DNA from: Deltaproteobacteria bacterium
GTDB lineage: Bacteria; Myxococcota; JACPTQ01
Reading direction: 5' to 3'
NCBI GenBank assembly: GCA_016192705.1
Contig: JACPTQ010000072.1
Location: 6,611 to 70,610 of the forward strand
Length of the DNA: 64,000 nt
Below, piece by piece: positions 13,133 to 41,781 of the stretch (positions are counted from its first letter, which is position 1; each line of letters opens with the position of its first letter). Under the pieces are notes generated by a model. It saw only the letters and a program-made list of their open reading frames with translations, had not been told where the DNA came from and ran no database searches. Made by a program: the position numbers and the translations under genes.

Positions 13133-13199
13133 TGCTTTCGTCCATCAATAAGAACTGGCCGATGTCGCCGCCGTATTCCACGCTTCAGGCTGCGCGGGG

Positions 13200-20267: not shown

Positions 20268-20698
20268 CGCTTGTCCGTTTTTCGCTCCTCAGTGAAGACG
20301 TCGTCGTCCGTGCCGTCGGCCTTATCCGGCCCCTTCGAGTGGATCTCGAATCCGCTCGCATCCGACTTCTTAAGATAAAGATACGGCTGGTCCCACGGGT
20401 CGAGTGGAACTTTGCCGCCCTCGAGATATTTTGACACCTCTTCGAGCGTGTCCGGAAACGACCGGTGCGTCGTGCGATACGTTTTCACCGCGGTGTTGAG
20501 ATTCCCGATCTGAATGCGCGCCGTTCGCACCTCGCCTTCCTTCAGCGCATTCACAACCGCGACGCCGACGACCCCCGCAATGAGCCCGATGATGGCGATG
20601 ACGACCATGATCTCGACAAGCGAAAAGCCTCTTGGCCGCGCTCGCGATAGGGGCCTGTCTGCGTCGTTGCCTTCGTCGCTCGCGCCCTCAACGTACAT
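20264..20698 (-). CDS. gspG: type II secretion major pseudopilin GspG
   Basis: Chosen start MYVEGASDEG... gives a 25-aa leader ending RPRG|FSLVEIMVVIAIIGLIAGVVGVAVV. Strongest pseudopilin signature in the cluster; about 144 aa, as expected for GspG. Confidence 0.8.
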   Translation of the reverse strand: MYVEGASDEGNDADRPLSRARPRGFSLVEIMVVIAIIGLIAGVVGVAVVNALKEGEVRTARIQIGNLNTAVKTYRTTHRSFPDTLEEVSKYLEGGKVPLDPWDQPYLYLKKSDASGFEIHSKGPDKADGTDDDVFTEERKTDKR

Positions 20699-20808
20699 AA
20701 GAGTACGCCTCGGGCTCTCACTCCTCGGCGCCTTGCATCCAGACCCTTCTCGCGAGCCCGGATCCAACTTCATCTCGTTCTCTTCTTTCTCTTCCATCTC
20801 TCTCCTCC

Positions 20809-21952
20809 TCACCGCTTACCGATCGATTGGTTGAGTTTCATGATCGGCAAGACAACCGAAAAAATAATGAACCCCACGACGCCGCCCATCCCCACGATCA
20901 GAATCGGTTCAAGCAGTGACGTCAGCCCCTGAAGCTTCGCGTTCACCTGCGTTTCATAATGGTCCGCAACGTTGACGAGCATCTCCTCAAGCTGCCCGCT
21001 CCGCTCGCCGACGGCGATCATGTGCGTCACCATAGGCGGAAACTGCCCAGACCGCTTGAGAGGCTGCGCGATGCTCTCGCCCTCTTTGATGTTGTTGCGC
21101 GCATCGTCGATGACCGCCTCGAGCACCTTATTGTTCAAAATGTTTTTGACGATGCCGAGCGCCGTCAGCAGTTCGACACCGCTCTTTAGAAGCGTCGCAA
21201 GCGAGCCACCACCAGTCGCGCATGAAGTTCGAGACGCCGATGAGGATTTCCGTGGGCAGCGGTAAGTCGGTTTTGATGTGTTTGAAGATCGACATGAGTC
21301 GCGGCACAAGAACCGTAAACAGCAGCACAACGATGAGGCCGCCCAAAATCATCATGATGATGGGGTAGGTGAGGGCGCCCATCACCTTCGCACGCAGCTT
21401 GACCTGCTCTTCGGTGAAGTTGGCGAGGCGCGTGAGCACGAGATCGAGTGTTCCCGACGATTCGCCCGCGCGAACCATGTTGACGTAAAGCGGCATGAAC
21501 GTCTTGGGGTGGTCGCCAAGCGCGTTCGCGAGCGAGGTCCCTTCGTTGACGCGTTCGCGCACCTGCGCGAGGATCGTTTTGAAAAGTTTGTTGTCGGATT
21601 GATCGACGACAGCCGAAAGGGCCTCGACGAGCGGTAGTCCGGCGCCAAGCAGCGTTGCGAGCTGCCGCGTCATCACGGCGACGTCGCCCGCTGGAACGCG
21701 GCGCCGCTTAAAAGGGACAGAGACCTCGAACTCTTTTTTCGTGAGCGCCGCGAGCAAACCGCCACCCGCACCCGCCGCTCCAGCAGCCGCCCTTGCGCGG
21801 CCGCCGCCCGCACCCGCCGCCTCGGAAACCGCCGTCAAGAAAACGCCGTCCTTGCGCAGCACCTGCCTTAGCGCGCGCGCCGACTCAGCATCGCGCACCC
21901 CGGCGATCGCCTTTCCCTTTTCCGTCAACCCTTTGTATTCAAAAACTGGCAT
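20809..21952 (-). pseudogene. gspF: type II secretion inner-membrane protein GspF, disrupted by internal deletion of about 130 bp plus frameshift (or an assembly error)
   Basis: N-terminal 250 aa (MPVFEYKGLTEKGKAIAG ... LIGVSNFMRDWWWL) read in one frame and terminate at 21128. The C-terminal 134 aa (ATLLKSGVELLTALGIV ... FPPMVTHMIAVGERSGQLEEML ... LPIMKLNQSIG) are in another frame, 20809-21215. Compared with GspF/EpsF, about 45 aa (second TM segment and loop) are missing at the junction near 21205-21215, next to a tggtggtgg repeat. Confidence 0.75.
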
Positions 21953-22030
21953 TCAGTTCTTCTCAGTGTCTTCCTCTGTACCTTTGTGTCTCTGTGGTTG
22001 CATTTTCTTCTTCTTGTTCTTCTCTTCTGC

Positions 22031-23776
22031 CTACGCAACATCCTCCTGCGTCACGCGCATCACCTCCGAAATCGTCGTCACCCCCTGAACGACCTTGAGC
22101 AGCCCGTCGTCGCGCAGCGTCCGCATTCCACGCTGGATGGCGAGCTTCTTGATGGTGTTCGAGTCGAGCTTTCGCCGTGTCATGTCGCGCACGTCGTCGT
22201 CGATCATCATGAGTTCGTAAATCCCGACGCGCCCCACGTACCCGGAGTTAAGGCAAGCGGGGCAGCCTTTCTCACGAAACACCGTGAGCCCGGCGCTTTG
22301 ATTGGGATCGAGCCCAAGCTCGACGAGCTCCGCTTCGCTCGGCTGATACGGAACGCGGCACGCTTTGCACACGACGCGCACGAGGCGCTGCGCCAAGACC
22401 GCGAGAAGCGACGACGACAACAAGAACGGTTCAACGCCCATATCGATGAGTCGCGTGAGCGCCCCTGGCGCATCGTTCGTGTGAACCGTTGAAAAGACGA
22501 GGTGCCCCGTGAGCGACGCCTGAATCGCAATCTCCGCTGTCTCAAGGTCGCGGATTTCGCCGACCATGATGACATCCGGGTCGTGGCGTAAAATCGATCG
22601 AAGGCCCCCCGCAAAAGTGAGCTCAATTTTTGGGTTCACTTGGATTTGACTGACGCCCTGCAGCTGATACTCGACCGGGTCCTCGACCGTGATGATCATC
22701 TGGTCCTTCGTGTTGATTTTCGCGAGACACGCATAGAGCGTCGTCGTTTTCCCGCTGCCCGTCGGTCCCGTGACAAGCAGAATTCCGTGCGCGCGCTGGA
22801 TGAGTTCCTGCATCACCTTGTAATTGTCTTCCTGGAAACCGAGCGACGATAAATCGACGAGCACCGCCGACCGGTCGAGGAGGCGCATCGTGATTCGTTC
22901 GCCGTGCGACGTTGGCGCCGTCGCGACGCGAATGTCGATGTCTTTCCCCGCGAGTTTTATCCGAATGCGTCCGTCCTGGGGGAGCCGCTTCTCGGCGATG
23001 TTGAGCCCCGCCATGATCTTCACGCGCGACGAGATCGACGCGTGGTATCGCTTCGCGGGGCGCATGATCTCTTTCAACACGCCGTCAACGCGAAACCGCA
23101 CCGAGATGTCGCGCTCCATCGGCTCGATGTGAATGTCGCTCGCGCGGTCTTTCACCGATTGAAAAAGGAGCGAATTCACGAGGCGAATGATCGGCGCCTC
23201 TTCGTCAACGTCGAGAAGGTCTTGCGGTTCTTCGAGCTCGTGCGCGATGTTTTGGAGGTCGGCCCCTTCAAGATCGTCCATCGCCGCGTCGGTAACGCCA
23301 CTCTTCCGATCGAACACGCGGTTGATGGCGTCGAGGATCGTCTGGCCGGCCGCGAGAACCGGGCGCACCTCACGCCCCAAAATCGCGCACAAATCATCGA
23401 GTGGCGCCGTGTCGACCGGGTCCGCGCACGCAACCTCCACCGCTTCATCGACCCAACGCAACGGCAAAACGCGGTACTGTTTCGCATAGTTGATGGGGAT
23501 CGGCCCGACGACCTCCGTTTGAATCGCCTCGGCCGCGATCGCCTCGACAACCGGCAAGTCAAACTGCAGGCCGAGCGCATGGACGACGTCGGCCTCCGTC
23601 ACGGCCTTCATCCCAACGAGCAACTCGCCGAGTCGCCCCCCACGCTCACGCTGCAACGCGAGGGCTTCGTCGATTCGCGCGACCGTCGTTCGCCCGTGTG
23701 CAACCAGAATCTCGCCGAGCGGGCGCCCGACCCAACTTCGTTCCGCGCCCATCGCTCCAACCCGCATCGGCCTCAC
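22031..23776 (-). CDS. gspE: type II secretion ATPase GspE
   Basis: 581 aa; N1 domain, Walker A LVTGPTGSGKTTTLYA, Asp box, His box, and tetracysteine zinc motif CKACR...GCPACLNSGY. Start overlaps the gspD stop. Confidence 0.9.
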   Translation of the reverse strand: MRPMRVGAMGAERSWVGRPLGEILVAHGRTTVARIDEALALQRERGGRLGELLVGMKAVTEADVVHALGLQFDLPVVEAIAAEAIQTEVVGPIPINYAKQYRVLPLRWVDEAVEVACADPVDTAPLDDLCAILGREVRPVLAAGQTILDAINRVFDRKSGVTDAAMDDLEGADLQNIAHELEEPQDLLDVDEEAPIIRLVNSLLFQSVKDRASDIHIEPMERDISVRFRVDGVLKEIMRPAKRYHASISSRVKIMAGLNIAEKRLPQDGRIRIKLAGKDIDIRVATAPTSHGERITMRLLDRSAVLVDLSSLGFQEDNYKVMQELIQRAHGILLVTGPTGSGKTTTLYACLAKINTKDQMIITVEDPVEYQLQGVSQIQVNPKIELTFAGGLRSILRHDPDVIMVGEIRDLETAEIAIQASLTGHLVFSTVHTNDAPGALTRLIDMGVEPFLLSSSLLAVLAQRLVRVVCKACRVPYQPSEAELVELGLDPNQSAGLTVFREKGCPACLNSGYVGRVGIYELMMIDDDVRDMTRRKLDSNTIKKLAIQRGMRTLRDDGLLKVVQGVTTISEVMRVTQEDVA

Positions 23777-26553
23777 TCCTCCCCATCATCGGTGACCACG
23801 AAACCTTCGCGCACCGGCGGGTCGGCCTTCGGATCGGGAACGCCCTTCGTTTCGCCGCCCTTCACGGGTTTGCCGTCCGGCCCAAGCAGCGGCGCTGGGC
23901 CCTTCTTCTTCTTTTTCTTCCCCTTCAGTTCGTCGCGCTTGTCTTGGGCCTCCTTCGCCTCCTTGTCCATCCGCTCCTGGTCGCGAATCGCCTCCTCGAA
24001 CTTCCCGCCGTACTGATTCACCTCTTCGAGCGGCCCGTGTTTTTTCCCGTAGTCGACCGTGAACGGCGAATCGATCCCAGCCTTCGAGAATTTTTCTAAA
24101 AACTCTTGCCGCTCCTGCATTTTCTTCTCGAAGATGCGTCTAAAATCCTGCGGCGTTCGAATGATGTGGGGCGTCAGGAAGATGAGAAGATTGGTCTTCG
24201 CCATCCGATTGTTCTTCTTGCGAAAGAAGAACCCGAGCACAGGGATGTCGCCGAGAATCGGGATTTTCGACGACCCCTCCGAAACGATGTTCTTCATGAG
24301 CCCGCCCACGACGATCGTGCTCCCGTCTTTCACGATCACCGTCGTCTTGACCGTCCGCTTCGTCGTCTTCGGTTGATTCGTCGTCGGCTCGACTGCACCG
24401 AGCTCCGAGATTTCGTTGTTGACGTCCATCGTAACGTACGACGATTCGTTGATCCGCGGCTTGATGCTCAGTTTCAGCGACACGTCTTCGCGGGTGACGC
24501 TCGTCGTAAGGAGTCCCGGCAGTCCTCCGGCGGCTCCGGCGAGCGCGCCGAGACTCGTCGTTGCGCCGCTGATGAACGGCACTTTTTCGCCGACCGTGAG
24601 CTCCGCGTCTTTGTTGTCGGTCGCGAGGATGTGCGGCGTCGACAAGACGTTCGTGTCCTGGTTCGACTGGAGAAACTGCAAAAACGCACCGAACGATGGA
24701 ATCCCGGTGCCGAGGCTAAACGTGCCGGTGGTGCTCGTCGTTGTTGTTGACGAGCCGAGCGCGCCGGTTGTTCCTGGGACGTCGGGTCCGCGCAGAATGG
24801 CGCCGAATCCCGTGAGCGCCGCCGGCGTCAAGAACAGCGTGTCGGCCGGATTGTTCCCAAACATGAGCGGAACGGTCTGCCCATTGACGCTGAAACCCTT
24901 GCCGCCAGTAAACGAAACTTTCTGGTCCTTTTGGCGGTCGATCGCGACCTCCATGATAACCGTCTCAACAAAAACCTGGTTCCGCCGCATGTCGAGTTTC
25001 GCGATGATGTCTTTGAGCGCGCGGTAATCTTTTTCGGTGCCGATGATAATGAGCGAGTTCGTCGCCTTGTCGGCCGTGATCTTGAGCTCGCCCTCGAACA
25101 GGCTGGCGCCGGCAGCCGCCCCTTTTGCGCCCGGCGCTGTTGGCGGCCTCGGACCTGTTTTTGCGCTTCCGGCCGCGAGACTCGCGAGAACGGTCGCCAT
25201 CTCCTCGGCCTCGGCGTTTTCGAGGTAATGAACGCGCACGCGTCCTTCGCCACCCGGGAGCGGAATGTCGAGCTCTTTGATGAGTTGCACAACTTTGCTG
25301 TACGCACGGTCTTGCGCAACGATGATCAGCATGTTGGTGCGTTCATCGGAAATGATTTTCGACACGCGAACATCCTCGTCGGCCTCGGGCGGCAACATCG
25401 CGGGCGTCGTTCCGGGTGTTGGCGGAGGTTGTGGAGCCGGTGGCGGCGGCGGACGACCGGGCGTTGGCGGTGCGTGGGGCGTGACCGGTTGCGCCTGACC
25501 GCGCGGTTTTTTCCCAGACTTGTCGCCAAACAGCTCGTTCAGTTTCGACGCGATGTCGCTCGCCGTTGCGTGCTTGATCTTGCGCAAGAAGATCCGCTCG
25601 CGCCCACCGGTCGGCACGTCAAGCCGTTCGATAATCTTCAAGATGCGTCGAATGTTCGCCGCGGTGTCAGACAGAATCAACGTGTTCGTTGGAGCGTACG
25701 GCGTCAAGTCGGAGCCGCGGCCCTTCAACTTATTGATAACGTTTTGAATCTCGGCGAGCTCGACGTGCTTGACCGGGATAAGCCGCGTCAGGAAGCGGTC
25801 GTCGTCGGGCACCGGTTCCTTGTCGGGCAGCGTCGTGATCGGCATTTGATTCGCGTCGCGCTGCTCGACAAGCTTCAAGTAGTTTCCCGACGGCACGACG
25901 GTGAGTCCGTTCACCTCGAGCGCCGAAAGGAACGCCTTCCACGCCTCACCGATACGAACTTTGCGCGGCGAGAATATTGAAATCTTTCGGCCTTTGACCT
26001 TCTCAGTCAGGATGAAGTTCTTGCCGGTAAGGTCTGAAATCCACTTAACAACCGCCTCGAGATCCTCTTTCGGCAAATCGAAGCTGAACGCGACGTTCTT
26101 CGGGAATTTTGGGTTGTGCTTAATGTTCTTTGGGTAGTCGGTTTCTGGCAGCGGCCCGCCTGACGACGGCGCGGGGATTGGCGGTCCACCGGCCTTGGCG
26201 TCGCCGGGCTTTTTCGCAGGCACTGCGGTTGTTGCGGCCGCTTTCGCATCGCCCTTGCCGGGCCGTGGCGTAAGGCTCCCAGGTTTCTTCAAATCTTTTG
26301 GTGGAACGAGCGGAATAACAGGATCTTTTTTCCTTGTCGCCTCGAGCACGGGCGCTGCCTTCTTCTTAAAACGCTTCCGTGGCCGCGCCGGTTCTTCATC
26401 CTGCGCCTGTGCTGAAATTGAAAAAGCGAGGACGGGGAGTAACCACAGAGGCGCTGAGATTCGGAGATTGGAGGAGGCTGAAAACCTCTTTCTCTTCCGA
26501 CCTCTCTCACTCTGCGTCTCTGTGGTTTCTCTTCTATCTTCCATCTCTCTCAT
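23773..26553 (-). CDS. gspD: type II secretion secretin GspD with long Lys/Pro-rich N-terminal extension
   Basis: Start taken at MREMEDRR... (ATG 5 nt after an AAGGTGG SD that sits 11 nt after the upstream stop). Signal peptide ...LWLLPVLAFSISAQA|QDEE, N0-N3 domains, and C-terminal secretin domain (VPILGDIPVLGFFFRKKNNRMAKTNLLIFLTPHII). The ORF-track N-terminal 33 aa overlap the upstream PDZ coding sequence and are discarded. Confidence 0.85.
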   Translation of the reverse strand: MREMEDRRETTETQSERGRKRKRFSASSNLRISAPLWLLPVLAFSISAQAQDEEPARPRKRFKKKAAPVLEATRKKDPVIPLVPPKDLKKPGSLTPRPGKGDAKAAATTAVPAKKPGDAKAGGPPIPAPSSGGPLPETDYPKNIKHNPKFPKNVAFSFDLPKEDLEAVVKWISDLTGKNFILTEKVKGRKISIFSPRKVRIGEAWKAFLSALEVNGLTVVPSGNYLKLVEQRDANQMPITTLPDKEPVPDDDRFLTRLIPVKHVELAEIQNVINKLKGRGSDLTPYAPTNTLILSDTAANIRRILKIIERLDVPTGGRERIFLRKIKHATASDIASKLNELFGDKSGKKPRGQAQPVTPHAPPTPGRPPPPPAPQPPPTPGTTPAMLPPEADEDVRVSKIISDERTNMLIIVAQDRAYSKVVQLIKELDIPLPGGEGRVRVHYLENAEAEEMATVLASLAAGSAKTGPRPPTAPGAKGAAAGASLFEGELKITADKATNSLIIIGTEKDYRALKDIIAKLDMRRNQVFVETVIMEVAIDRQKDQKVSFTGGKGFSVNGQTVPLMFGNNPADTLFLTPAALTGFGAILRGPDVPGTTGALGSSTTTTSTTGTFSLGTGIPSFGAFLQFLQSNQDTNVLSTPHILATDNKDAELTVGEKVPFISGATTSLGALAGAAGGLPGLLTTSVTREDVSLKLSIKPRINESSYVTMDVNNEISELGAVEPTTNQPKTTKRTVKTTVIVKDGSTIVVGGLMKNIVSEGSSKIPILGDIPVLGFFFRKKNNRMAKTNLLIFLTPHIIRTPQDFRRIFEKKMQERQEFLEKFSKAGIDSPFTVDYGKKHGPLEEVNQYGGKFEEAIRDQERMDKEAKEAQDKRDELKGKKKKKKGPAPLLGPDGKPVKGGETKGVPDPKADPPVREGFVVTDDGEE

Positions 26554-26702
26554 CACACCCACCTTCACTGGATCTGGTAGTTCAACTTCTTTTTCGTGCC
26601 ACCGCCCGAAAGTTCGATCTGAATTGAGCTCGCATCCTTGAGCCGCCGCCACGCGTCGAACGCCTTGTCGGGGCTATCGATGTCCTCGCCGTTTATTCGT
26701 CG
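26384..26702. repeat. direct repeat copy 1 (about 320 bp, about 95% identical to copy 2): PDZ 3' half + 11-nt SD-containing intergenic + signal-peptide coding 5' end
   Basis: Aligned by eye with 26956-27274. Period 572 bp. Lower-identity paralogy continues on both sides. Confidence 0.85.
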
Positions 26703-27125
26703 AATCACGTCGCCGCTTTTGATTCCAAGCTTCGAAAAAAGACTCTCCGGCCGAACGCTAAACACTTTGATACCCACGGTTTTAGCCCTTTCAAAATAGA
26801 GGGCGACTCGCGGGCACGGCGTGAGTTGGCCCTCTTTGGAGGGTTCGGAAAGCAACTCCTGCCGGGAGATAACGAGATTGGCTTGCGAATCGTTTCGGAT
26901 GGTCTTACGGGATAACGTTTTTGGCAGATGTTTCTTTTGATCTTGTTTTCTCGGTCGCGCCGGTTCTTCATCCTGCGCCTGCGCCGAAAACGAAAAAGCC
27001 AGGACGGGGAGTAACCACAGAGGCCCTGAGATTCGGAGATTGGAGGAGGCTGAAAACCTCTTTCTCTTCCGACCTCTCTCACTCTGCGTCTCTGTGGTTT
27101 CTCTTCTATCTTCCATCTCTCTCAT
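26565..27125 (-). CDS. chimeric GspC-like PDZ protein carrying the GspD-type cleavable signal peptide (predicted soluble periplasmic PDZ paralogue)
   Basis: Start MREMEDRR... with the same SD and spacing as gspD. Signal peptide LWLLPVLAFSFSAQA|QDEEPARPRK is nearly identical to the GspD N-terminus. It is followed by a short linker and a PDZ domain whose C-terminal half (GDVIRRINGEDIDSPDKAFDAWRRLKDASSIQIELSGGGTKKKLNYQIQ) is nearly identical to the GspC C-terminus. No TM anchor or HR domain. Confidence 0.6.
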   Translation of the reverse strand: MREMEDRRETTETQSERGRKRKRFSASSNLRISGPLWLLPVLAFSFSAQAQDEEPARPRKQDQKKHLPKTLSRKTIRNDSQANLVISRQELLSEPSKEGQLTPCPRVALYFERAKTVGIKVFSVRPESLFSKLGIKSGDVIRRINGEDIDSPDKAFDAWRRLKDASSIQIELSGGGTKKKLNYQIQ

Positions 27126-27274
27126 CACTTCCACCTTCACTGGATCTGGTAGTTCAACTTCTTCTTCGTGCCGCCGCGCGAAAGTTCGATCTGAATTGAG
27201 CTCGCATCCTTGAGCCGCCGCCACGCGTCGAACGCCTTGTCGGGGCTATCGATGTCCTCGCCGTTTATTCGCTG
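26956..27274. repeat. direct repeat copy 2 of the gspC-3'/gspD-5' junction segment
   Basis: Partner of 26384-26702. Confidence 0.85.
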
Positions 27275-28102
27275 AATGACGTCTCCGTTCGTGATGCCGA
27301 TCTTCGAATAGAGGCTTCCCGGCCTGATGCTAAACAACTTGAACCCCGCGCCCTTACCCCCTTCAAAGTGCGGGACAATTCGGGCTTCCGTCGCGAGCTG
27401 GTTTAGGTTCGAGAGCCGATTCTGAACCTCCTGACGCGTGATGACGTAATCGCTGTCTGAAAGTTTTTTGATGTTCTTGTCGTCGACGGCGGTTGGTGTC
27501 CCTTCGCTCGCCGAAATCGTTGGCGGCGACGCGGCCGCTCGTGCCGCGCGCGCGCGTTTTGCCTCGTCGTCCATCGCTTCGAGTTTTTCGCGCTTGCCTC
27601 CCTGCTCAAGAATCACAGTGGGTCGCGGCCACCGATCGATTTCAACGATGGTCCACCCCTGAATGGCGCTTCCCATTCGATACAGCTCCGCTTCGGCGTT
27701 TGGAGCGGCTTTGTCTCGAATCGCCGCGAACGACCACGCAGGATTTTGCGCGACGATGGTGCCGACCAACTCCGCGTTCAGCTTGCTGTCTTGAACGTCG
27801 CCTTCCTTTTGTGGCACCAGCGCCGAACCCGCATCGGGCGGTGCTGTCGCGGCTTCGTACGAGTAACTCGAATTGAAAATGTTCGTCTTCAGGAGAGGCA
27901 TCGGATCTTTGCGGACATTTCGCGGCGCGGAAACAACGGGCAGCGGTGCCGGAGGATCGCCCGAAGCTGGCGCCACCGTGAGTGCGCGTTCGATCCAGCT
28001 CGATGCGCCCCAGGAACCGACGAGGGCGCCGAGCGAAACGACGCCGACGTTGACAACCCAAAAGTAGCGCTTAAGAACGGTTTGAAGGGTGGGCAGAGCC
28101 AT
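27137..28102 (-). CDS. gspC: type II secretion protein GspC (TM anchor, HR domain, PDZ domain)
   Basis: 321 aa; N-terminal TM (YFWVVNVGVVSLGALVGSW), Pro-rich linker, HR-like region (LVGTIVAQNPAWSFAAIRD...YRMGSAIQGWTIVEIDRWPRPTVILEQGGKREKLE), and C-terminal PDZ (FKLFSIRPGSLYSKIGITNGDVIQRINGEDIDSPDKAFDAWRRL). First gene of the gsp operon. Confidence 0.7.
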   Translation of the reverse strand: MALPTLQTVLKRYFWVVNVGVVSLGALVGSWGASSWIERALTVAPASGDPPAPLPVVSAPRNVRKDPMPLLKTNIFNSSYSYEAATAPPDAGSALVPQKEGDVQDSKLNAELVGTIVAQNPAWSFAAIRDKAAPNAEAELYRMGSAIQGWTIVEIDRWPRPTVILEQGGKREKLEAMDDEAKRARAARAAASPPTISASEGTPTAVDDKNIKKLSDSDYVITRQEVQNRLSNLNQLATEARIVPHFEGGKGAGFKLFSIRPGSLYSKIGITNGDVIQRINGEDIDSPDKAFDAWRRLKDASSIQIELSRGGTKKKLNYQIQ

Positions 28103-28277
28103 ACGGGAATTACGGGGAGCAAGCGATGCGCCATCGCGATCCCGACGGAAAACTGAGGAGCATCAGTGACTCTCGGTCCCGAAAGCGGCGGCGCAAATGC
28201 CAATCTGGCAAAGCAAGCCCGTGTCGCCTTTCAACCGTGACATTTAGACAACTCGAAAAAGCGCGCGAATCAGAAGT

Positions 28278-31200
28278 CTAAGGAATCCGTTTCACGAAGA
28301 CGGCCGTATTGTTCGAGCATCTCGCCGCTTCAAAGCGCCCCGCGGGAACTCTCTTGCGGTAAACGCCCCATGGATGGTTATCCGACGCGCGATAGATCGT
28401 CCCCACCTTCGTCCAACCGCCGCCTGGAGGCTGACACTTGGTGTGGTCGTACGCATCGGTGTGATAAACGATCGCCGGCTCAGTGAGCGTAAAGACTGGC
28501 GGAACCCCGGAGCCACCCTGAATGAGAACGCTCCCCTCCATTTCCGGGAGCAGATTCTTTATCGGCTCAAGGTTGGAGCGGTAAATAAACTGCCTGCCCA
28601 CCGGATTCTCATGCGGCCCCGCAATCGCCGGCACCACGTCTCGGACGAGTCGGGAAGCGAATCCTGACGGCCACCCCGCTCGCTGCGCCGTGACGCCGTA
28701 CTTAAACTCGCTGAGGTTCGGCTTTTGCGCTTGTTGAAGGTTCGAGAATCTCCCCTCGAGCGAGTTCGCGGAAACCGTGAGCCGGTACCACTGCCACCAG
28801 CCGGGGCTGACCCGACGGAGCTCCAAGACCCGCGTGGCCGGGTCGAAGCTCACCGAGTCGATATTCTCGCGCCCAGCGCCCCCAAAGCGCAGGTCGAGTT
28901 GATACCCGGATCCGGCTCGCGCGATCTCGAGATCGAACCTGTGGTTGTTCGCGTTGCCTTGCCACTTACCCGCGGGGTCGACGACGGGACTCTGGGATGT
29001 CGCGGCAGGCCCTTGTGCCGCCGCACCCGCCGCCTTGACCGCGTCCTCCGCAGCCACGCTGGTGCATTTGACGACGGCGCCGAAGGTTGCGCCCACGTTT
29101 CGCGTGAGGTTGTTCTCACAGCAGTCGGACGCCTTTCTGACGAACGTGTCGCGTCCGGCGCTCGCGACCTTACCGATGGCCGACTTCAGGTCGCTCACCC
29201 CCGGAACACCGCGCATTCGCGCGTCGCCAAAAAACGCATCGACCGCTTTGAGTCCGTCGTCGGCTGACGAAATCGTTCGGTTCAACGCCTTTCGGTACTC
29301 GGAGCACGCAAAGACCTTGAGCGCCTCGCCCGCCGCGGCGTTCAGTGACTCCGCGAGGCACTCGGTCGCATTCTTGAGCATGCCGCTGAAATTGGCGCTC
29401 CCGCCACAGCTCGGCTTGCACTTGGGGTTCGACTCGAGTTCGTTCGCGAACGTCGAAAACCCAGTGTCGGTGAGCGTCGCGACCTTGTCGCGCAAGTCTT
29501 TCGGGAATCCGAGCTTCACGGCGCTCGCAAGCTTTTCGATGTTATCGACGACCGCACCTTTGAGCGTTCCCGAGCGCGCCTCATTCGCGATCCAGCGCAC
29601 AGTGCCGTCGTACGCTGCCGCCGCGAGCGCCGTCCCCGCGCACGATCCGGCCTGGCTCACGAGCGCGCCCCAATCGACGTTCGCCCCGATGTTGAGCTTC
29701 GAGCCGTCGGCGCCGATGCAGCTCTCGAGGCACTGTGACATCGCCGGAATCCCGTACCGTCCGATGTTCGCTCCCACGCCCTTCAGCATGTCTGGCAGGT
29801 TGACGCTTCCCGCGCCCCCGAAGTTAAGCGAAAAATTGAGCCCCGCGTTCTCGAAGAAGCCAGCGAGATTCGCAAACTGCAACCGGAACGTCTCGCCTTC
29901 GCCGCGGGCGGCATCGACGACCTTCATAAGCGCTTCTTTGACGAGCGCGTTTCGGCCAACAATGAGCGCGCTCTCGGCTTCTCGCCTTAGGCACGCGACG
30001 ACGCCGGTCACGAACCGGTCGAACGCGCCCCTCCAATCGTTCCCTTCGAACGCGAGATTTACGCACGCCGCGCGGATCTGAAGGCCGAACTTCTCGACCG
30101 CGGCGCCCGAAGCTTTATCAAGCATTGCGGCCACATTGAAGTCGCCCGGAATCGCCCGACCGAGCGCGCCGAAGAGCGAACTGAGGCCGCCTTTAATTGC
30201 GCCAAAACCAAGACCAGAAAAGGCATCCAGCGCGCCCGCCGCAAGGCCGATTTGTGCCCCAACGCCGAGGCAATTGAAGAGGTTCTCAAGGAACTTTTTG
30301 ATCCCTTCACCCTTGCCAATGTCGCGTGTGACGCTTGAGCAGACCTGACCCACGAATCGTCCAAACACGGCCGCGCCGGCGTCGAGCCCACTCTTCAAGA
30401 GCTCGTCGAGTTTCCCGGGGAGTGCGGGAAACGAAAGCTTAAATCCGCCGAACGAACCCACGAACGCGCCCCAAGCCGCGTCGAGGCCGGACTTCGAGGT
30501 TGCGCCCTTCGCGATTTCAGCGACGGCGCTGACGATGGTCGACTCCTGGAGTGCGTTCAACGCGACGGGTCCGATGCAATCAAAGACCTCCTTCGCGAGT
30601 GCCGCGACGTCGCCACCTTTGAGCTGCTTGTTGCCGCAACTTAGCCGAAGCTCAACGCCAAATCGCCTGCCACTTTCCGTCGCAATCTTGCCCGCGAACG
30701 TCATCAGGTCGGGCGGCATTCCGAGTCCCCACGCGCCAAAGACGTCTCCGAGAAACTTGATCCCGTCGCCGAATCGGTTGGATTCCTTCTCGGCGAAATC
30801 GGCAAGCCTTTGGACCGCGGCCAAGATGAGATCGCCCGGCCCATACTCCTTCTGCTCCGTGATCGCCCCGAGCTTGCGAGCCGCGTCGCGCAGCTTGTCG
30901 AGCGGGATGACCGCGCCGACACCTTTGCAAAGCGCCTTGAGCGGTTCGCTGAGAACCGGTCGAAGGGCGTCGAACGACTGGTTCAAGAGCGGCTTCAGGA
31001 CGAAGTTGCGCACGAGTTCCTTGGCGCCTGGAATGCGGATGTTCACGACCGGGATCGCGGTGCCGTCGAATACAAAGTCGCTGACCTTTTCCGCGATGAG
31101 CGGCGCAAGGAAGGTATCGTGAAGCGCGTTAAGCGCAAAATGAGACAGAACCCCGGCGACCGGGCCGAGAAGGGCGCCGACGCCACCGAGCGTCGCACCT

Positions 31201-34200
31201 GCCGCGGCTACGGCCTGCGTGATCATGGCGACGAGGGGAGGGTAGATCGTCTTCGTCACCACGGGGAGCTTCAGCACCGCTTCGACGAAGCCGCTCACGA
31301 TCCCGACGAGTGCGGGTCGAAGCATGATGGCCGCTTGGTCGAGGAGCGCATCGATGAGCTTATTCACCGCGTCGGCGATGGCCTGCGTTTTTCCGCCAGG
31401 CGAGGTCATCGCCGCGAAGGGGTCTGGGCAAAGGCCGGTGACGGTCTCGACGATCTTTGCGAGACTGCTGACGATATCGAGAATTTTTCCTGCGCCTGTA
31501 AAGAAGTCCTTTACATCTTTAAAAACAACGCGAACCCTCGGCGGCACGAGTCCGCAAACCGGTTCAATCGCCGAAACCTTTGTTTGCCCCGCAAGGCAAT
31601 CGATCGCGTTCTGCCCGAGCGCGGTGATGAGCCGGCCGACGGGGCCCGTCACGGCGCTGTAAATCTGATCGAGGACGGGCGAGACGATCGTGTCAAACGC
31701 GTCGGAAATCGCTCGCTTTACTCCTTCGGCTATCGGTACGCCATACTGGTCCCAGAGCGCCTTCGCGGAGTTTCCGACGAAGTCGATCGCGTTCTTTCCA
31801 AGGTCGACGACGTACGTGACGGCGCCGACGGCGGCTTGCCCCATCGCCTGAAGCCCGGCGGTCGTGAATTCGCCGACCTTCGCGAATCCGTCGCCGATCC
31901 CTTTCGCGAGACTCCCGCCTTCGACCATGACGTCGCTCATCGCGCTGTTGAACGTGCTCATCGCCGCCTGCGGATCGCTAAACATCTGCCCGACGCCGTT
32001 CGAAACTTTGCCGACCCACTTCCCAAATTTTTCCCACGGCGGCGCCTTGGCATCGGCCTCGCGGCGCGCCTGTTCTTCAAGCGCTCGTCGCCGATCGTCA
32101 GCGGCCTTTGACGCTTTCGTCAGCGCCTCCTGCGCGTTCGCGCAAAAGTCATCGTAACGTTTGTCGCCGTCCGCCAAGAGGGACCTTATTTGCTCAAAGC
32201 CGGTGCAGTTCTTTTCCTTGGCGGTCAGGTTTTTCGGGAAACTGAGCGATGGCAAAAAGTCACCTCTTCCCGATCCTTTGCACCGACTTGAGATTTGGCT
32301 AAGCGTATCGTCGGCGTCTTTCCTATTGCCACTGCCGAGGTGACGCATCGCGGTTTCCACATCGATCCTGATAATTTCGAAGCTGAACCAGAGTGTGCCC
32401 TTAGCCACGTCGTGGCAGTCGTTGAGGCGCGCGGCCGTTTCATCGAACTCCTTTGTTTTCGCCTCGACGAGGTTGGTGACGATCTGTCTCGCGCTTGAGT
32501 AAACCGTGTTAAGCACGACCGTGACGGGGCTCACCATGGCCCCGGCGCAAGGCCCGTCCTTTTTCGAGAACTGCGTGAGAACATGTTTCCCGAGAGCCTC
32601 GATGGTCTTTGCAAATTCTCCCTGGCCGTTTTCAACCCATTTCCCAAAGTCGCTCGCCTTCTCAAAAGGGAATCGCGAGAACGGCGGTTCAAAAACAGCG
32701 CGAAACTTGGCGAGCCCCTGTGAGATGCAGGCGTTTTCTTTCATCCAGAGTACGGTGCCGGCGGTGCTATCGAGGTTGCTCTCGGAAACAAACTTTCGTC
32801 GCGCGTCGGCGGTGGCGAAATGGTTTCGCAGCCCTTGCGGGCCGCCGCCGCCCACGCCGTCGTCGAGCAACTTTCGCATGAGCGTGAGCGCGCGGTTTGG
32901 ACGCGTGCCGCTCGGGTGCTCCGGCAATGTCGGATTCATCAAGTAGCCGGCGATCCCGGGATAATTGGCGCGCAATTCGGCGGTTGCCACGAAGATGAGC
33001 GACTTCACCGCCTCGCCCTTAAGGCGTTCGAGCTCGGCGCCAATCCCGAGCTGACTCAAGAAATAACCACGCTTCTCGCGCACCGACTTTTCGAGTTTCG
33101 CCGGGTCGTTCGCGCCTTTGCACCAGCCCCACATCTCCTTGATGACGGTGCGGAGCGGCGATGCGCGACTCGGATCGCTCGCGTCGTCGAAGAGCAGCAT
33201 GCCAGCGATCGATGGATAGTGGTCGAGCTCCGTCGCGAATTCACGACGAAGAGCGGCGATGGCGGCGTCACGATTGGGACTTCCGACCTTTAGTTTGTCG
33301 AGCAGGGAGCCCTGCTCTTGCGTTAGCTTTGCTCGGACGTTTGCGGCGTCCAAGCGTTCAGTGGACGAAAACCGGCGGAGCAGCGCCTTAAAGAACGGGT
33401 TCCCAGAACTCGTAACCGCCGGAATGATTTGCGGCGAACACGTGATGGCGTCCTTGAACACCGTGAGAAGCGACGAACGAACAGTCTCTTCGCGCAACCG
33501 AACGTATTCCGCTTCAACTTTGTCACTCACCGGCTTTTCCAGGAGCGGCGCGATGAAGTTCGCAAGGTTCCGGCTCTGTGGAATCCGTCTTTGGTCTCGC
33601 GACGAAATGATCTGCCAATCGGCGGGCGTGAGTTTGACGTTGCTCGTCTTCGCGAGCGCCGTTTTCAGCAGGTCGGATGATGGGTCTTTGAAGATCGCGC
33701 GAAGGCCGGGCTCCACTTTGGTGTAATGGAAATACGCAAGGTCGAGGGCGTTGACGATTTCGAGCCCGTCGATGCACTTCGATAGCGCGACCGCAACCTG
33801 GTTCGGGTCTTTGTTAAACCCGAACTTTGGGAACTGGCGTTTGATCGCCGCGTAAAGGACCTCATACCGTTCGTTGACGCAAAGCCGCTCGCGTTTGAAA
33901 ACATCGAGTCCTGTTTCGGTCAGCGCTCGAATCAACTCGGACTGCCTTGACCAGTTGCCTCGTATATCCTGCTCCCATTTGCCTGGCGGCGACGTCCGTA
34001 TCCAATCCGCGGCGGCCTGAACTACGCGGCCGTTCGGATGAACGGCGGCGCCAAGCACGGTTGGGAAGTTCTGCCGAACGATCGGAAAGAGACTCGCAAT
34101 CACTTGCCCCGCATACAATCGCCGCAATTTGTCGAGCTCGCCAAAGATCGCCTTGAATCCAGGGAAGCCGGTCTTATTTGCCTTGAGTTTCTCAAAAAGC

Positions 34201-35249
34201 TCGTCGCGTAAAACTTGTTCGGGCGATATGATCTGGCCGGACCTGCGGGTCACTGGGCCGCCCACTTCGAAGTCGTTGAACCGTCCCCGCCCCGACCCCG
34301 TAGGTTTTTTTAGCTTGGTGAATGAGGCCACAACGGCGTCGATGGCGGCGCGCATCGGAACTCCGTTTGGGTCGAGAAGGACCGGCCGCAGTTTGTATCC
34401 GACGGAGCTGTCTTCGTCGGCATAGACGAGCGGAAGGACTTGGCTCGCGACGGACGGCGCGTAGCAGCGAGCGACCGCAGCTTTGATCGCAGGGGTCCAG
34501 TCGACTTCTTTCATCCGCGACTGAAGACGCACGAGAACCTGGCGTTCGCGTCCAGGTCTGACAACGATTGGTTCCTGGAGCCGGCGCGCGAGGATTTCCG
34601 GGAGCTCTGTTTGCCGCGTCGCCTCGATGGCTTCGACGACGATCGCGCAACCGCCGATCGACGCGGGCAGACTGCCCATATAGATGTTGATTGCCTGACG
34701 CTGTGCCGTGAGGGCGATCCGCTCAACGTCCGCGAAGGTGAGTTTTTCCGCGACCATCTCGGCTTCGATTTCGTCGATCCGCTCCTTGGGGGGTGCCGGT
34801 GCCCTCGCGGCCCCCGCTCCATAGAAAACACGACGAAGGACGCCCCACTCGATGAGGTTGCGCCGCATCTTCGAGTCGCTCTGCAGCTCCTTGATGAGCG
34901 CCGTCATGATTGGAGCCACGGAGAGGTCTTGGCCGAACCCCGGGACGTTGGCGAGCGCTTTTTTCCACCGTTCAAACTCCCGCGGATCGGGCTCTCGTCC
35001 TAAGACAGTCTTGTAGGCGTACGCGGTGTTTCGACAGATGGTGCTTTCATTGTTTGGAGCGCACCCCGTGGTCGTCGCGCGCGTAAGCGCACGGCACGTG
35101 TCGTGTGTGTGCCAGGCGCACCAATCGGCGGCGCGGTCAGGTTTCCGCTGCGCTTGCACAGACGCTGGCACCGACCAAGCGAGCAAGAACGCCGGCATAA
35201 CGAGTCTGGCCATCCGAGTTTTCCACTTAAAACGTGCTGCAAACCGCAT
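28278..35249 (-). CDS. giant secreted protein (2323 aa), mostly alpha-helical/low-complexity, no recognised catalytic domain
   Basis: Uninterrupted 6.97-kb ORF directly upstream of, and co-oriented with, the gsp operon. N-terminal signal peptide (MARLVMPAFLLAWSVPASVQA). Cys-rich N-terminal module with a LGREPDPxEFERW motif, then long A/G/L/K-rich helical regions. Shares short motifs with the 828-aa protein at 52404-54890. Confidence 0.6.
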   Translation of the reverse strand: MRFAARFKWKTRMARLVMPAFLLAWSVPASVQAQRKPDRAADWCAWHTHDTCRALTRATTTGCAPNNESTICRNTAYAYKTVLGREPDPREFERWKKALANVPGFGQDLSVAPIMTALIKELQSDSKMRRNLIEWGVLRRVFYGAGAARAPAPPKERIDEIEAEMVAEKLTFADVERIALTAQRQAINIYMGSLPASIGGCAIVVEAIEATRQTELPEILARRLQEPIVVRPGRERQVLVRLQSRMKEVDWTPAIKAAVARCYAPSVASQVLPLVYADEDSSVGYKLRPVLLDPNGVPMRAAIDAVVASFTKLKKPTGSGRGRFNDFEVGGPVTRRSGQIISPEQVLRDELFEKLKANKTGFPGFKAIFGELDKLRRLYAGQVIASLFPIVRQNFPTVLGAAVHPNGRVVQAAADWIRTSPPGKWEQDIRGNWSRQSELIRALTETGLDVFKRERLCVNERYEVLYAAIKRQFPKFGFNKDPNQVAVALSKCIDGLEIVNALDLAYFHYTKVEPGLRAIFKDPSSDLLKTALAKTSNVKLTPADWQIISSRDQRRIPQSRNLANFIAPLLEKPVSDKVEAEYVRLREETVRSSLLTVFKDAITCSPQIIPAVTSSGNPFFKALLRRFSSTERLDAANVRAKLTQEQGSLLDKLKVGSPNRDAAIAALRREFATELDHYPSIAGMLLFDDASDPSRASPLRTVIKEMWGWCKGANDPAKLEKSVREKRGYFLSQLGIGAELERLKGEAVKSLIFVATAELRANYPGIAGYLMNPTLPEHPSGTRPNRALTLMRKLLDDGVGGGGPQGLRNHFATADARRKFVSESNLDSTAGTVLWMKENACISQGLAKFRAVFEPPFSRFPFEKASDFGKWVENGQGEFAKTIEALGKHVLTQFSKKDGPCAGAMVSPVTVVLNTVYSSARQIVTNLVEAKTKEFDETAARLNDCHDVAKGTLWFSFEIIRIDVETAMRHLGSGNRKDADDTLSQISSRCKGSGRGDFLPSLSFPKNLTAKEKNCTGFEQIRSLLADGDKRYDDFCANAQEALTKASKAADDRRRALEEQARREADAKAPPWEKFGKWVGKVSNGVGQMFSDPQAAMSTFNSAMSDVMVEGGSLAKGIGDGFAKVGEFTTAGLQAMGQAAVGAVTYVVDLGKNAIDFVGNSAKALWDQYGVPIAEGVKRAISDAFDTIVSPVLDQIYSAVTGPVGRLITALGQNAIDCLAGQTKVSAIEPVCGLVPPRVRVVFKDVKDFFTGAGKILDIVSSLAKIVETVTGLCPDPFAAMTSPGGKTQAIADAVNKLIDALLDQAAIMLRPALVGIVSGFVEAVLKLPVVTKTIYPPLVAMITQAVAAAGATLGGVGALLGPVAGVLSHFALNALHDTFLAPLIAEKVSDFVFDGTAIPVVNIRIPGAKELVRNFVLKPLLNQSFDALRPVLSEPLKALCKGVGAVIPLDKLRDAARKLGAITEQKEYGPGDLILAAVQRLADFAEKESNRFGDGIKFLGDVFGAWGLGMPPDLMTFAGKIATESGRRFGVELRLSCGNKQLKGGDVAALAKEVFDCIGPVALNALQESTIVSAVAEIAKGATSKSGLDAAWGAFVGSFGGFKLSFPALPGKLDELLKSGLDAGAAVFGRFVGQVCSSVTRDIGKGEGIKKFLENLFNCLGVGAQIGLAAGALDAFSGLGFGAIKGGLSSLFGALGRAIPGDFNVAAMLDKASGAAVEKFGLQIRAACVNLAFEGNDWRGAFDRFVTGVVACLRREAESALIVGRNALVKEALMKVVDAARGEGETFRLQFANLAGFFENAGLNFSLNFGGAGSVNLPDMLKGVGANIGRYGIPAMSQCLESCIGADGSKLNIGANVDWGALVSQAGSCAGTALAAAAYDGTVRWIANEARSGTLKGAVVDNIEKLASAVKLGFPKDLRDKVATLTDTGFSTFANELESNPKCKPSCGGSANFSGMLKNATECLAESLNAAAGEALKVFACSEYRKALNRTISSADDGLKAVDAFFGDARMRGVPGVSDLKSAIGKVASAGRDTFVRKASDCCENNLTRNVGATFGAVVKCTSVAAEDAVKAAGAAAQGPAATSQSPVVDPAGKWQGNANNHRFDLEIARAGSGYQLDLRFGGAGRENIDSVSFDPATRVLELRRVSPGWWQWYRLTVSANSLEGRFSNLQQAQKPNLSEFKYGVTAQRAGWPSGFASRLVRDVVPAIAGPHENPVGRQFIYRSNLEPIKNLLPEMEGSVLIQGGSGVPPVFTLTEPAIVYHTDAYDHTKCQPPGGGWTKVGTIYRASDNHPWGVYRKRVPAGRFEAARCSNNTAVFVKRIP

Positions 35250-35287
35250 TCTCTCCTCCCGTCATCGACCTTCTATATCCTTTTGAC

Positions 35288-35300
35288 GGGGGGGGGGGGG
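35288..35300. repeat. G13 homopolymer (C13 on the giant-gene coding strand), about 40-50 nt upstream of the giant gene ORF start, followed by T7 and G6 runs
   Basis: Read directly: ttttgacggggggggggggggatttattcaaagtttttttggggggc. Confidence 0.9.
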
Positions 35301-35681
35301 ATTTATTCAAAGTTTTTTTGGGGGGCTTCCGTCACCGTTCCGATGCCCCCAGTCAGCGCAATCGCATCTAAAAAGACCAGGTAGCAGGTTGATGGTATTC
35401 GTCCGTGACTCTCAACAATTTCGTTTTGGCGCGAGTTATTCGCGTGCACCCAAGAGGCGAACCCGCCGGGTCGCATGGGCACGGCGAGCCGGTCGGCGAT
35501 CTGCCGTCACAAGGTCCACCCCCAGCGACTCAGGGCCTGTGCATTTTTCCGCACCGTGTTAGGGTGAGAACATCGAAGGTTCGTGTTCCCACGGTGTTTG
35601 AGCGCCCCGAGAACAGGCGGAGGACGGACACGCTGCGAGATTTGACCGCGTTTCAGGGCGTTTGTTAGATTGAGAGCAACG

Positions 35682-36365
35682 ATGAACGACGTGGCTTCAC
35701 AGTCCGGCGGCTCCGAAGTTCTTTTTCAGCGGTTTGGTCGCCAGGCGCCAGCCGGGACGGTCCTATTCCGGGAGGGCGATTCCGGCGAGGAGATGTATGT
35801 CATTCAGAGTGGCCGCGTGCAGATAACGGTTACGGTTCGTGGCATCGAGAGGATGCTCGACGAGCTTGGGCCCGGTGAGTTTTTTGGCGAGATGGCGATC
35901 CTAAACGCGCGACCGCGGAGCGCCACGGCGACCGTTATCGAGGAGGCGCAACTCCTCGTGGTTGGCGCGAAAACGCTCGAGGCGATGATTCGCGGAAACA
36001 CGGAGATCGCGGTGCGCATGGTCAAGAAGCTCGCGGAGCGACTCGACGAGGCGGACCGAGTTATCGAGAACCTGATGTTGCGTGACTTGGCGAGTCGCGT
36101 TGTGCACCATTTGCAGGGCCTCGCGGAGACAGCCGGCGTCGCGGCGACCGAAGGCGGTGTGCGGATTCAAACAACGCCGAGTGAAGTTTCGCAAGCCATT
36201 TTGGTGCCGCTCGAAACCGTCGGGGATGTTTTCGCGCGGCTCGTAAAGGCGAATCTGCTCAAGCCCGAAGCGGGCGGCGCGTTTGTTATTCCAGACCCCG
36301 CAGCGATGGGGCAGTTTCTGGAATTCTTGGGGATGAAGGCGCGCTTCGAGCGACCGCTCACATGA
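35682..36365 (+). CDS. Crp/Fnr-family transcriptional regulator (cNMP-binding domain + C-terminal HTH)
   Basis: cNMP-binding beta-roll (GEFFGEMAILNARPRSATATVIEEAQLLVV) and C-terminal helix-turn-helix region. ATG at 35682 preferred over the TTG at 35670. Confidence 0.75.
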   Translation: MNDVASQSGGSEVLFQRFGRQAPAGTVLFREGDSGEEMYVIQSGRVQITVTVRGIERMLDELGPGEFFGEMAILNARPRSATATVIEEAQLLVVGAKTLEAMIRGNTEIAVRMVKKLAERLDEADRVIENLMLRDLASRVVHHLQGLAETAGVAATEGGVRIQTTPSEVSQAILVPLETVGDVFARLVKANLLKPEAGGAFVIPDPAAMGQFLEFLGMKARFERPLT

Positions 36366-36375
36366 AAGTCGGAAA

Positions 36376-37137
36376 TTGAAATTCCGTGTGCTCGGCTGCC
36401 ACGGCGGCGAAGCGCCTGGGTTTCGCGCGACGGCGTTTCTCATCGACGATGTGTTTGCGATCGACGCGGGCGGGATTGTTGGCGCGCTCCCGATCACGGC
36501 GCAGGCGCGGCTGGAAGCCGTGGCGCTCTCACACATCCACCTTGACCACATGAAAGATCTCGCGATGGTCGCCGACAACACGTTTGCGCTTCGCCGGTCC
36601 CCGCTCGACGTTTATGGAGCCGAGACGACGGTTAAGCATTTGAAGCGGCATCTGTTCAACGATAAGCTTTGGCCCGATTTCACGCGGATACCGACCGCGT
36701 CGCGGCCGACGATTCGTTTGCATTCGGTGTCCCTTGAGAAAGACGTTCGGATCGGACGACTCACGATCCGAGCGATCCCCGTGTTTCATACGGTCGAGTC
36801 GGTCGCGTTTCTCGTGTCGGATGGCAGCGGCACGATCGCCGTGTCGGGCGACACCGGGCCGACGACGCGACTTTGGGAAGTCTTGAACGGCACCCACGAT
36901 TTGCGCGCGGTGCTCGTCGAATGTTCGTTTCCGAATGCGCTGCAAGAGGTCGCCGACCTTTCGGGTCACTTCACGCCGCAAACACTGAAAACCGAGCTCG
37001 AAAAACTCGCGAACCGCGACGTGCCGATCTTTGTTTATCATCTGAAGCCACCGTTTTATGGCGAGGTGGCGCGCGAGTTGCGCGGGATGGGGCGGCGCCT
37101 TCGGATTTTGAAGCTCGCCGATGAGTTTCGATTCTAG
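36376..37137 (+). CDS. class II 3',5'-cyclic-nucleotide phosphodiesterase-like (metallo-beta-lactamase fold)
   Basis: 253 aa; signature HIHLDHMKDL (HxHLDH of class II cAMP phosphodiesterases / MBL fold). Immediately downstream of the Crp-family regulator. Confidence 0.55.
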   Translation: MKFRVLGCHGGEAPGFRATAFLIDDVFAIDAGGIVGALPITAQARLEAVALSHIHLDHMKDLAMVADNTFALRRSPLDVYGAETTVKHLKRHLFNDKLWPDFTRIPTASRPTIRLHSVSLEKDVRIGRLTIRAIPVFHTVESVAFLVSDGSGTIAVSGDTGPTTRLWEVLNGTHDLRAVLVECSFPNALQEVADLSGHFTPQTLKTELEKLANRDVPIFVYHLKPPFYGEVARELRGMGRRLRILKLADEFRF

Positions 37138-41199: not shown

Positions 41200-41781
41200 A
41201 TGCAACCACAAAGACACACGGACACTGGGATTTTATGGAGGGGATTCTCTTTTGAGATCCACTTCCCTGTGCTTCAGCGCTCGCTGTCTCTGTGCCGCTT
41301 TGGTTGCATTTTCGTAGTCTTGTCTTGCGCCGTCCCAGCGCCGATCGACGGCCCGGCCGATGAGACGGCCGCATCGCCTCGCATCGTCTGGACAACCGTC
41401 GACCCGCCTGTCGGACTCGTGTCCATCAACCAGAGCGCGACATCGACCGAGTTTCGTATCATTCAAGTCGATGACCCGAACGTCGCCGACAAGTTGACCA
41501 TTCGATTCTTTGTCGACTACCACCGCGACACAACGATTCAACGCGAGTTCACGCTGCTCGCCGACCCCGGCTCGACGACCCCGACAATTCGCACGGGCGT
41601 GATTTTCAGTGCCCCGACCGCTCTCTTCGGGTCGAACCCCACCGCTTCGGCGCACCTCGTCGAGGCGATCGTAAGCGATCGCGGCTTTTCGGATACGGGG
41701 CAAACGACGAACATCAATCGGAACGTGCCGTCCGACGCACGCACCGATTACATCGCGTGGACCGTCCAGGTGGTCCCATGA
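41200..41781 (+). CDS. hypothetical protein, possible secreted/lipoprotein
   Basis: 193-aa ORF; hydrophobic N-terminal region with possible lipobox (VVLSC); no recognised domain. Confidence 0.3.
   Translation: MQPQRHTDTGILWRGFSFEIHFPVLQRSLSLCRFGCIFVVLSCAVPAPIDGPADETAASPRIVWTTVDPPVGLVSINQSATSTEFRIIQVDDPNVADKLTIRFFVDYHRDTTIQREFTLLADPGSTTPTIRTGVIFSAPTALFGSNPTASAHLVEAIVSDRGFSDTGQTTNINRNVPSDARTDYIAWTVQVVP

Follow-up and report, generated by a model that had tools for sequence, protein, structure and literature searches.

The window analysed here, 64,000 nucleotides (64 kb) of contig JACPTQ010000072.1 from an assembly labelled Deltaproteobacteria bacterium, carries on its minus strand a giant gene followed by the genes of a type II secretion system (T2SS). 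The giant gene occupies positions 28278..35249 and consists of a single uninterrupted open reading frame (ORF) of 6972 nt, stop codon included, encoding a protein of 2323 amino acids (aa), as had been stated in a first-pass annotation of this DNA. The probability of finding a run of 2323 open codons by chance at 61% GC is ~4e-32. The GC content at the first, second and third codon positions (0.62, 0.47 and 0.73, respectively) follows a pattern that is kept in each 600-nt block and resembles that of the gspC, gspD and gspE genes and of the genes for a Crp-like protein, a phosphodiesterase and AccD. A GGAGG motif, a strong Shine-Dalgarno sequence, is located 5 nt before the ATG initiation codon. 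Thus, given an open frame so improbable by chance, a uniform coding-type GC distribution and a strong Shine-Dalgarno sequence, the ORF is a real gene with native composition. The mature protein would have a mass of ~245 kDa and a pI of ~9, and contains 38 Cys residues and only 17 His. No paralogue was found within the window; an Rfam scan of the region gave no match and a tandem-repeat scan returned one short, low-scoring 21-nt repeat only (32095-32140). Downstream, a spacer of exactly the 175 nt previously given (28103..28277) separates the stop codon from the ATG of gspC at 28102. The two genes lie on the same strand, and a search of the minus strand of the spacer detected neither an intrinsic terminator nor a sigma-70-like site. 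All parts of the giant gene described below are likewise read on the minus strand.

Residues 1-33 (35151..35249), MRFAARFKWKTRMARLVMPAFLLAWSVPASVQA followed by QRK, have the features of a Sec signal peptide of the signal peptidase I (SPase-I) type. Reading the translation by eye bore out the Sec signal peptide already claimed, with a basic n-region, the h-region LVMPAFLLAWSV, and a cleavage site between VQA and Q, the peptide ending PASVQA and the mature chain starting QRK. The same inspection revealed no lipobox and no twin-Arg motif, and the first Cys is residue 44. The next portion (34935..35150) is the Cys-rich module noted earlier, with C44, C52, C63 and C72 together with the motif LGREPDPREFERW at aa 83-95. 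This motif has a sub-threshold similarity to DUF4214 (PF13946; 12.2 bits against a gathering score of 23.2, E 0.2). The pattern LGRxPDxxExxxW aligns with profile positions 27-50; however, only one third of the domain is aligned and the score is below the gathering score, so the resemblance is at the motif level only. The long stretch that follows, aa 106-1059 (32073..34934), has an ordinary composition, and Pfam, NCBIfam, motif and repeat scans found no domain, catalytic motif or supported repeat in it. Candidate repeats of the form [FY]P-x-[IV]-x-G, at aa 395, 473, 678 and 763, were unsupported upon leave-one-out scoring against shuffles. An ungapped self dot-plot yielded nothing exceeding shuffle maxima, and a BLAST self-comparison was also empty.

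Anchoring the search on Cys positions revealed a set of repeats that is absent from the first-pass annotation. Six divergent units of ~100 aa, R1-R6, lie in tandem between aa 1479 and 2082 (29004..30815). Each unit was scored with a leave-one-out hidden Markov model and compared with ~500 shuffles: four units scored above every shuffle, and the other two above all but 4 and 9 of them. A presumptive seventh repeat, R0 (aa 1382-1478), failed the leave-one-out test and was rejected. Alignment of R1-R6 shows three invariant columns, P34, C60 and C80, the two Cys residues being 20-30 residues apart in each unit. The maintenance of the Pro and Cys positions across six repeats that have otherwise diverged implies selection acting on the protein, and the even number of Cys residues, together with the conserved Cys pairs, suggests that disulfides are formed in the periplasm. 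An AlphaFold2 model of one unit, built with the six repeats as the alignment, consists of three long helices, with low confidence (predicted local distance difference test, pLDDT, 63.6). In this model the conserved Pro immediately precedes helix 2, whose end carries the first Cys. When compared with the PDB by Foldseek, the model had no match below E 1; searching the PDB sequences with a profile built from the six repeats was also empty. The Cys-pinned ~100-aa repeat is new, and the giant protein fits no known family.

Between the uncharacterised stretch and the repeats lies a segment rich in Ala, Gly and Val (aa 1060-1478; 30816..32072), whose sequence texture resembles that of phage tape-measure proteins. 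The protein beyond its N-terminal module had been described as overwhelmingly A/G/L/K/V-rich sequence, predicted to be helical. Enrichment in A, G, L and V proved to hold for aa ~1060-2082 only and not for aa 100-1060; helicity is predicted, with low confidence, for the one repeat unit modelled as described above. The most hydrophobic stretch of the protein, aa 1307-1365 (window 31155..31331), overlaps a single GxxxGxxxG motif at aa 1358-1366. The best 19-mer across the entire protein has an apparent free energy of membrane insertion (dGapp) of +3.55 kcal/mol on the Hessa biological scale, too weak for a transmembrane segment. No stop-transfer segment is therefore foreseen, and translocation of the chain across the inner membrane should be complete; anchoring to the inner membrane through the hydrophobic stretch is disfavoured by the same value. 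Profile searches matched aa ~1067-1815 to PHROG tape-measure families, namely phrog_1535 (E 1e-9) and phrog_58 and phrog_1272 (E about 1e-5 to 1e-6). In a control the real sequence scored 38.8 bits (E 7e-10). When reversed, it also matched tape-measure PHROGs, of other families, with a best score of 30.3 bits (E 3e-7) and E values reaching 2e-5; none of eight shuffles gave a match. Since the reversed sequence scores and the shuffles do not, the signal points to a periodic, small-residue helical texture as opposed to descent, and homology to tape-measure proteins is regarded as unsupported. Tape-measure PHROG matches on small-residue-rich helical sequence, here aa 1060-1830 (window ~29760..32072), thus need a reversal control.

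A linker rich in Ala, Pro, Gln and Ser leads from the repeats to the C-terminal region (aa 2095-2323; 28281..28967). These last 229 residues are rich in Trp, Tyr and Arg, in agreement with the earlier description of a compositionally distinct end of ~230 aa. The region was modelled as two beta-rich modules, again with low confidence (pLDDT 43.6), and Foldseek found nothing significant in the PDB for this model. The last module contains Cys 2272 and Cys 2311, and the protein ends ...VFVKRIP.

The search for relatives of the giant protein was extensive and empty. Pfam, NCBIfam, PADLOC and the PDB sequences gave no match; the first three of these collections, together with motif scans, bear out the previous statement that no nucleotide-binding, RHS, haemagglutinin or known toxin motif is recognisable. 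No relative was found in a word-indexed collection of 5.8 billion proteins queried with the whole protein, its C-terminal 244 aa and the six-repeat profile, nor did an exhaustive phmmer search with aa 1-1200 against 1.84 billion cluster representatives retrieve any homologue. GTDB species genomes, JGI metagenomes and IMG/VR, examined by pattern scans and tblastn, were equally negative, as was tblastn against a phage collection (50,697 records) and a plasmid collection. A lone metagenome match turned out to be spurious, lying out of frame inside a methylmalonyl-CoA epimerase/mutase region.

The sampling of the lineage itself bears on these results. Exact look-ups in public assemblies found only accD on record; for the giant protein, for GspC and GspE, for the first ORF of gspF and for the Crp-like ORF they gave no record. 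Logan contigs from three read sets (SRR12113426, SRR12113425 and SRR12113385) are 100% identical to window positions 35549-39859, which places the organism in public read sets. The contigs are short (1.5-4.3 kb), and the giant gene has no record there. Among 185,579 species genomes, the closest gspC loci come from metagenome-assembled genomes (MAGs) of Binatia, Myxococcota and Bradymonadia, with GspC 28-37% and GspE 55-60% identical to the proteins of the window. Such poor sampling tempers the weight of the negative searches, and the want of homologues may simply be a consequence of it.

The T2SS operon (12356..28102) lies on the minus strand downstream from the giant gene and is co-oriented with it. 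It begins with gspC (27137..28102), whose product combines a T2SSC and a PDZ domain, followed by the secretin gene gspD (23773..26652), gspE (22031..23776), a broken gspF (~20809..21952) and gspG (20264..20812). Further on, down to ~14390, come three pseudopilin-like genes, gspK, a PilM/actin-like gene in the GspL position and gspM. Two of the pseudopilin-like genes are recognised by an N-terminal methylation motif only and the third by a sub-threshold T2SSJ match; the gspM assignment likewise relies on a sub-threshold T2SSM match. An ORF of 396 aa without assignment and a PEGA-domain ORF extend the operon down to 12356. In the GspD ORF, 959 aa long, the N0 domain does not begin before residue 195, and the alignment with related secretins starts at ~177-189; the N-terminus corresponds either to a non-conserved extension or to a GTG start called too early.

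The gspF gene is divided between two ORFs that overlap and lie in different frames, with a junction near 21197. Compared with GspF from two related loci (L001 and L004), residues equivalent to ~245-291 (~45-47 aa), which comprise the second transmembrane helix and the linker, are gone, and the frame shifts between ...FMRDWWWLA and TLLKSGV.... The lesion is either an internal deletion, making gspF a pseudogene, or an assembly error. In the 13 related loci, the place upstream of gspC is taken either by a small divergent gene or by an NtrC-like regulator, and a tblastn search of these loci with the giant protein was empty. On this comparison, the giant gene is a lineage-specific addition next to the T2SS operon.

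The intergenic region upstream of the giant gene (35250..35669) is shared with a divergently transcribed Crp-like gene and contains, besides the Shine-Dalgarno sequence GGGAGGAGAG (~35252..35261), a run of 13 C residues on the strand of the giant gene (G13 on the opposite strand; 35288..35300), 39-51 nt upstream of the ATG. Just beyond, the coding strand carries a C6A7 run (35313..35325). No other G/C homopolymer of at least 9 nt occurs in the 64 kb, and the G13/C13 tract represents a candidate for slipped-strand phase variation or else a site prone to sequencing errors. A hairpin in which the C-tract would pair with the Shine-Dalgarno sequence and sequester the ribosome binding site is present in the minimum free energy fold; its z-score of -0.18 is matched by shuffles and the structure was discarded. 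On the plus strand, positions 35670..37137 encode a cyclic nucleotide-binding (cNMP) Crp-like regulator and a class-II phosphodiesterase of the metallo-beta-lactamase (MBL) fold acting on cyclic nucleotides; accD is also found on this divergent side, upstream of the giant gene. The regulator and the phosphodiesterase could together control the giant gene and the T2SS unit, as a module responding to cyclic nucleotides. CRP-type sites (TGTGA-N6-TCACA) are missing from both intergenic regions, and their number in the window is that expected by chance. Elsewhere, an 861-aa protein with CarboxypepD_reg domains and sub-threshold matches to multihaem cytochromes (c7, MtrC-like) is encoded on the plus strand at 55087..57672, and two ORFs, at 52404..54890 (828 aa) and 41757..43442 (561 aa), have no Pfam match. 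All three may be other exported proteins of the organism.

Altogether, the analysis leads us to view the giant protein as a lineage-specific orphan protein of the envelope or the extracellular space. Our best guess is that it is a cargo of the adjacent T2SS, a plausible and unproven assignment that we make tentatively. As far as can be judged from the sequence, the prerequisites for such a cargo appear to be in place: a Sec signal, no stop-transfer segment, an even Cys count and co-orientation with the operon. Other routes across the outer membrane were looked for in the form of an autotransporter barrel, RTX repeats and a lipobox, and none was detected.

We postulate that the ~245-kDa protein would be exported through Sec and fully translocated into the periplasm, where it would fold and become stabilised by disulfides; features of the sequence point to these steps. 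The adjacent T2SS would then move it over the outer membrane, and the protein might act outside the cell, or associated with its surface, as an elongated structural or adhesive element; here the position of the gene and analogy are the only guides. In its predicted layout, the signal peptide would be followed by a small four-Cys DUF4214-like head, ~950 aa of uncharacterised sequence and a probably helical, small-residue-rich segment of ~420 aa. These would precede a rod of the six ~100-aa three-helix repeats, each pinned by its Cys pair, and finally the two beta modules, the likely target-binding end. Taken from Sec export to the T2SS-secreted elongated surface protein, this course of events is a possibility that we put forward with reserve. 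More elaborate still, and unlikely in its entirety, is the proposal that the protein is the first representative of a yet undescribed family of giant rods with disulfide-stapled three-helix repeats. It would then serve, as the dedicated, operon-linked T2SS cargo of a deep-branching uncultivated lineage near Binatia/Myxococcota, as a surface fibre for adhesion or predation whose production is switched by the C13 tract in the leader or promoter of its gene.

Several observations weigh against secretion by the T2SS. If the gspF lesion is real and not an assembly error, the T2SS is probably inactive. None of the nearest gspC loci (0 of 13) has any giant gene upstream of gspC; related operons appear to begin at gspC, so that gspC may here keep a promoter of its own in the spacer. 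The searches yielded no homologue that would show conservation of the giant protein or its co-occurrence with a T2SS. The signal peptide was called by eye only, and both structural models have low confidence (pLDDT 63.6 and 43.6), their fold searches being empty.

Some of these points would be accommodated if the protein resided in the envelope, as a periplasmic or structural component (for example a spacer or scaffold on the outer membrane or the peptidoglycan), the adjacency to the T2SS being incidental. This explanation, somewhat less probable than secretion, has in its favour that a signal peptide and Cys pairs call for a periplasmic location only, that the neighbourhood is not conserved, related T2SS operons having unrelated genes upstream, and that the giant ORF is intact while gspF is disrupted. 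However, a 245-kDa protein that is not a lipoprotein and has no anchor segment would be unusual in the periplasm, and terminal beta modules mounted on a repeat rod resemble, with low confidence, an outward-facing binding end.

A further proposal keeps T2SS secretion and makes the protein a membrane-active toxin or predation factor, in which hydrophobic, partly Gly-zipper-like helices (aa ~1307-1365) would insert into a target membrane, binding to the target being the task of the C-terminal beta modules. Myxococcota and Bradymonadia include predators, and it is in these groups that the nearest relatives of the T2SS occur; furthermore, the most hydrophobic stretch, given here as aa 1339-1366, carries the GxxxGxxxG motif, and the texture is tape-measure-like. 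That stretch is nonetheless weak (dGapp +3.55), no toxin or pore-former family was matched in Pfam, NCBIfam or PADLOC, and no immunity-like gene lies downstream; the idea is quite improbable.

Far less credible is the notion that the locus is decaying or an assembly artefact and the giant ORF not a functioning gene. The deletion and frameshift in the neighbouring gspF would fit this notion, as would the failure of every search to find a homologue and the absence from the record of any exact or partial copy of the giant protein, even in samples of the same organism. It is opposed by the 2323-codon open frame (chance ~4e-32), the uniformity of coding-type codon-position GC over 7 kb, the strong Shine-Dalgarno sequence and the conservation of Pro and Cys in six diverged repeats. 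Least likely of all, the central region might be a domesticated and fused phage tail tape-measure protein, to which the PHROG matches over aa ~1067-1815 (phrog_1535, E 1e-9) would point; the matches to the reversed sequence largely refute such descent, the 50,697 phage records and the viral contigs hold no relative, and no phage family was found among the window ORFs scanned against Pfam.

At present, the T2SS-cargo proposal concerns one orphan gene in a poorly sampled lineage, the nearest GspC being 37% identical. Giant secreted proteins without relatives are frequent in MAGs, and sequence alone brings no long-standing question within reach of a test here.

Comparison with known systems sets the giant protein apart from several classes of proteins. 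Polymorphic toxins of the RHS, CDI and MAFB types are distinguished by features that it lacks: it has no RHS/YD or filamentous-haemagglutinin repeats and no known C-terminal toxin domain, and in place of an immunity gene only the 175-nt spacer before gspC follows it. It does not resemble a type V autotransporter, having no Pfam match to Autotransporter or outer membrane protein (OMP) families, an end (...VFVKRIP) without a terminal aromatic residue and a Cys pair in the last module. Unlike RTX adhesins of type I secretion systems, it contains zero GGxGxD motifs and has an N-terminal signal peptide. With phage tape-measure proteins it shares long small-residue-rich stretches and the profile scores that their periodic texture generates. 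It differs from them in its Sec signal peptide and Cys-pair repeats, and its gene lies outside any tail-gene module, with the T2SS, Crp-like, phosphodiesterase and accD genes as neighbours.

Rods made of three-helix-bundle repeats are found in spectrin and in the Ebh protein of Staphylococcus. The likeness lies in a unit of ~100 aa, predicted here as three long helices and arranged in tandem; yet no match to the repeat of the giant protein was found in sequence or in structure (Foldseek E above 1), and we know of no spectrin or Ebh family in which a conserved Pro and a Cys pair per unit are a feature. If borne out, the Cys-pinned 100-aa repeat would represent a new type of unit from which extracellular rods are built.

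For the arrangement of the genes there are precedents. In Omnitrophota, giant genes are reported to adjoin T2SS-like loci of the gspD/E/F type, and a role in adhesion or predation has been proposed for them (bioRxiv 10.1101/2023.11.21.568195). In both cases a very long, largely unannotatable gene stands beside secretion genes. However, the Omnitrophota proteins exceed 30,000 aa and contain many transmembrane regions and SecA-DEAD-like domains, whereas the protein studied here has 2323 aa and none of these; moreover, there the secretion locus is upstream of the giant gene, while here the giant gene is upstream of a canonical gspC-M operon. The closer parallel is with SslE (YghJ) of Escherichia coli, whose gene, with a product of ~180 kDa, directly precedes the gsp-beta operon and is regulated together with it, the product being secreted by that T2SS (PMC3707838). 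The giant gene is likewise directly upstream of gsp genes and co-oriented with them. The similarity ends at the proteins, as SslE belongs to the lipoproteins and carries an M60-like zinc-metallopeptidase domain, and the giant protein, ~50% longer and with no detected sequence similarity to it, has a signal of the SPase-I type, no HExxH motif and no Pfam or NCBIfam match.

Were the giant protein indeed a substrate dedicated to the T2SS, it would rank with the largest known and be mostly non-enzymatic, would widen the range of sizes and shapes that the secretin and pseudopilus handle, and would provide a second, unrelated case of the SslE type, in which the cargo gene heads the operon. The earlier suggestion that such a protein constitutes an undescribed cargo class was too strong, since both the sslE-gsp arrangement (PMC3707838) and the giant genes of Omnitrophota (bioRxiv 10.1101/2023.11.21.568195) precede it. 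A large cargo gene heading a gsp operon is thus an arrangement of a known kind; what is new is the protein and its repeat.

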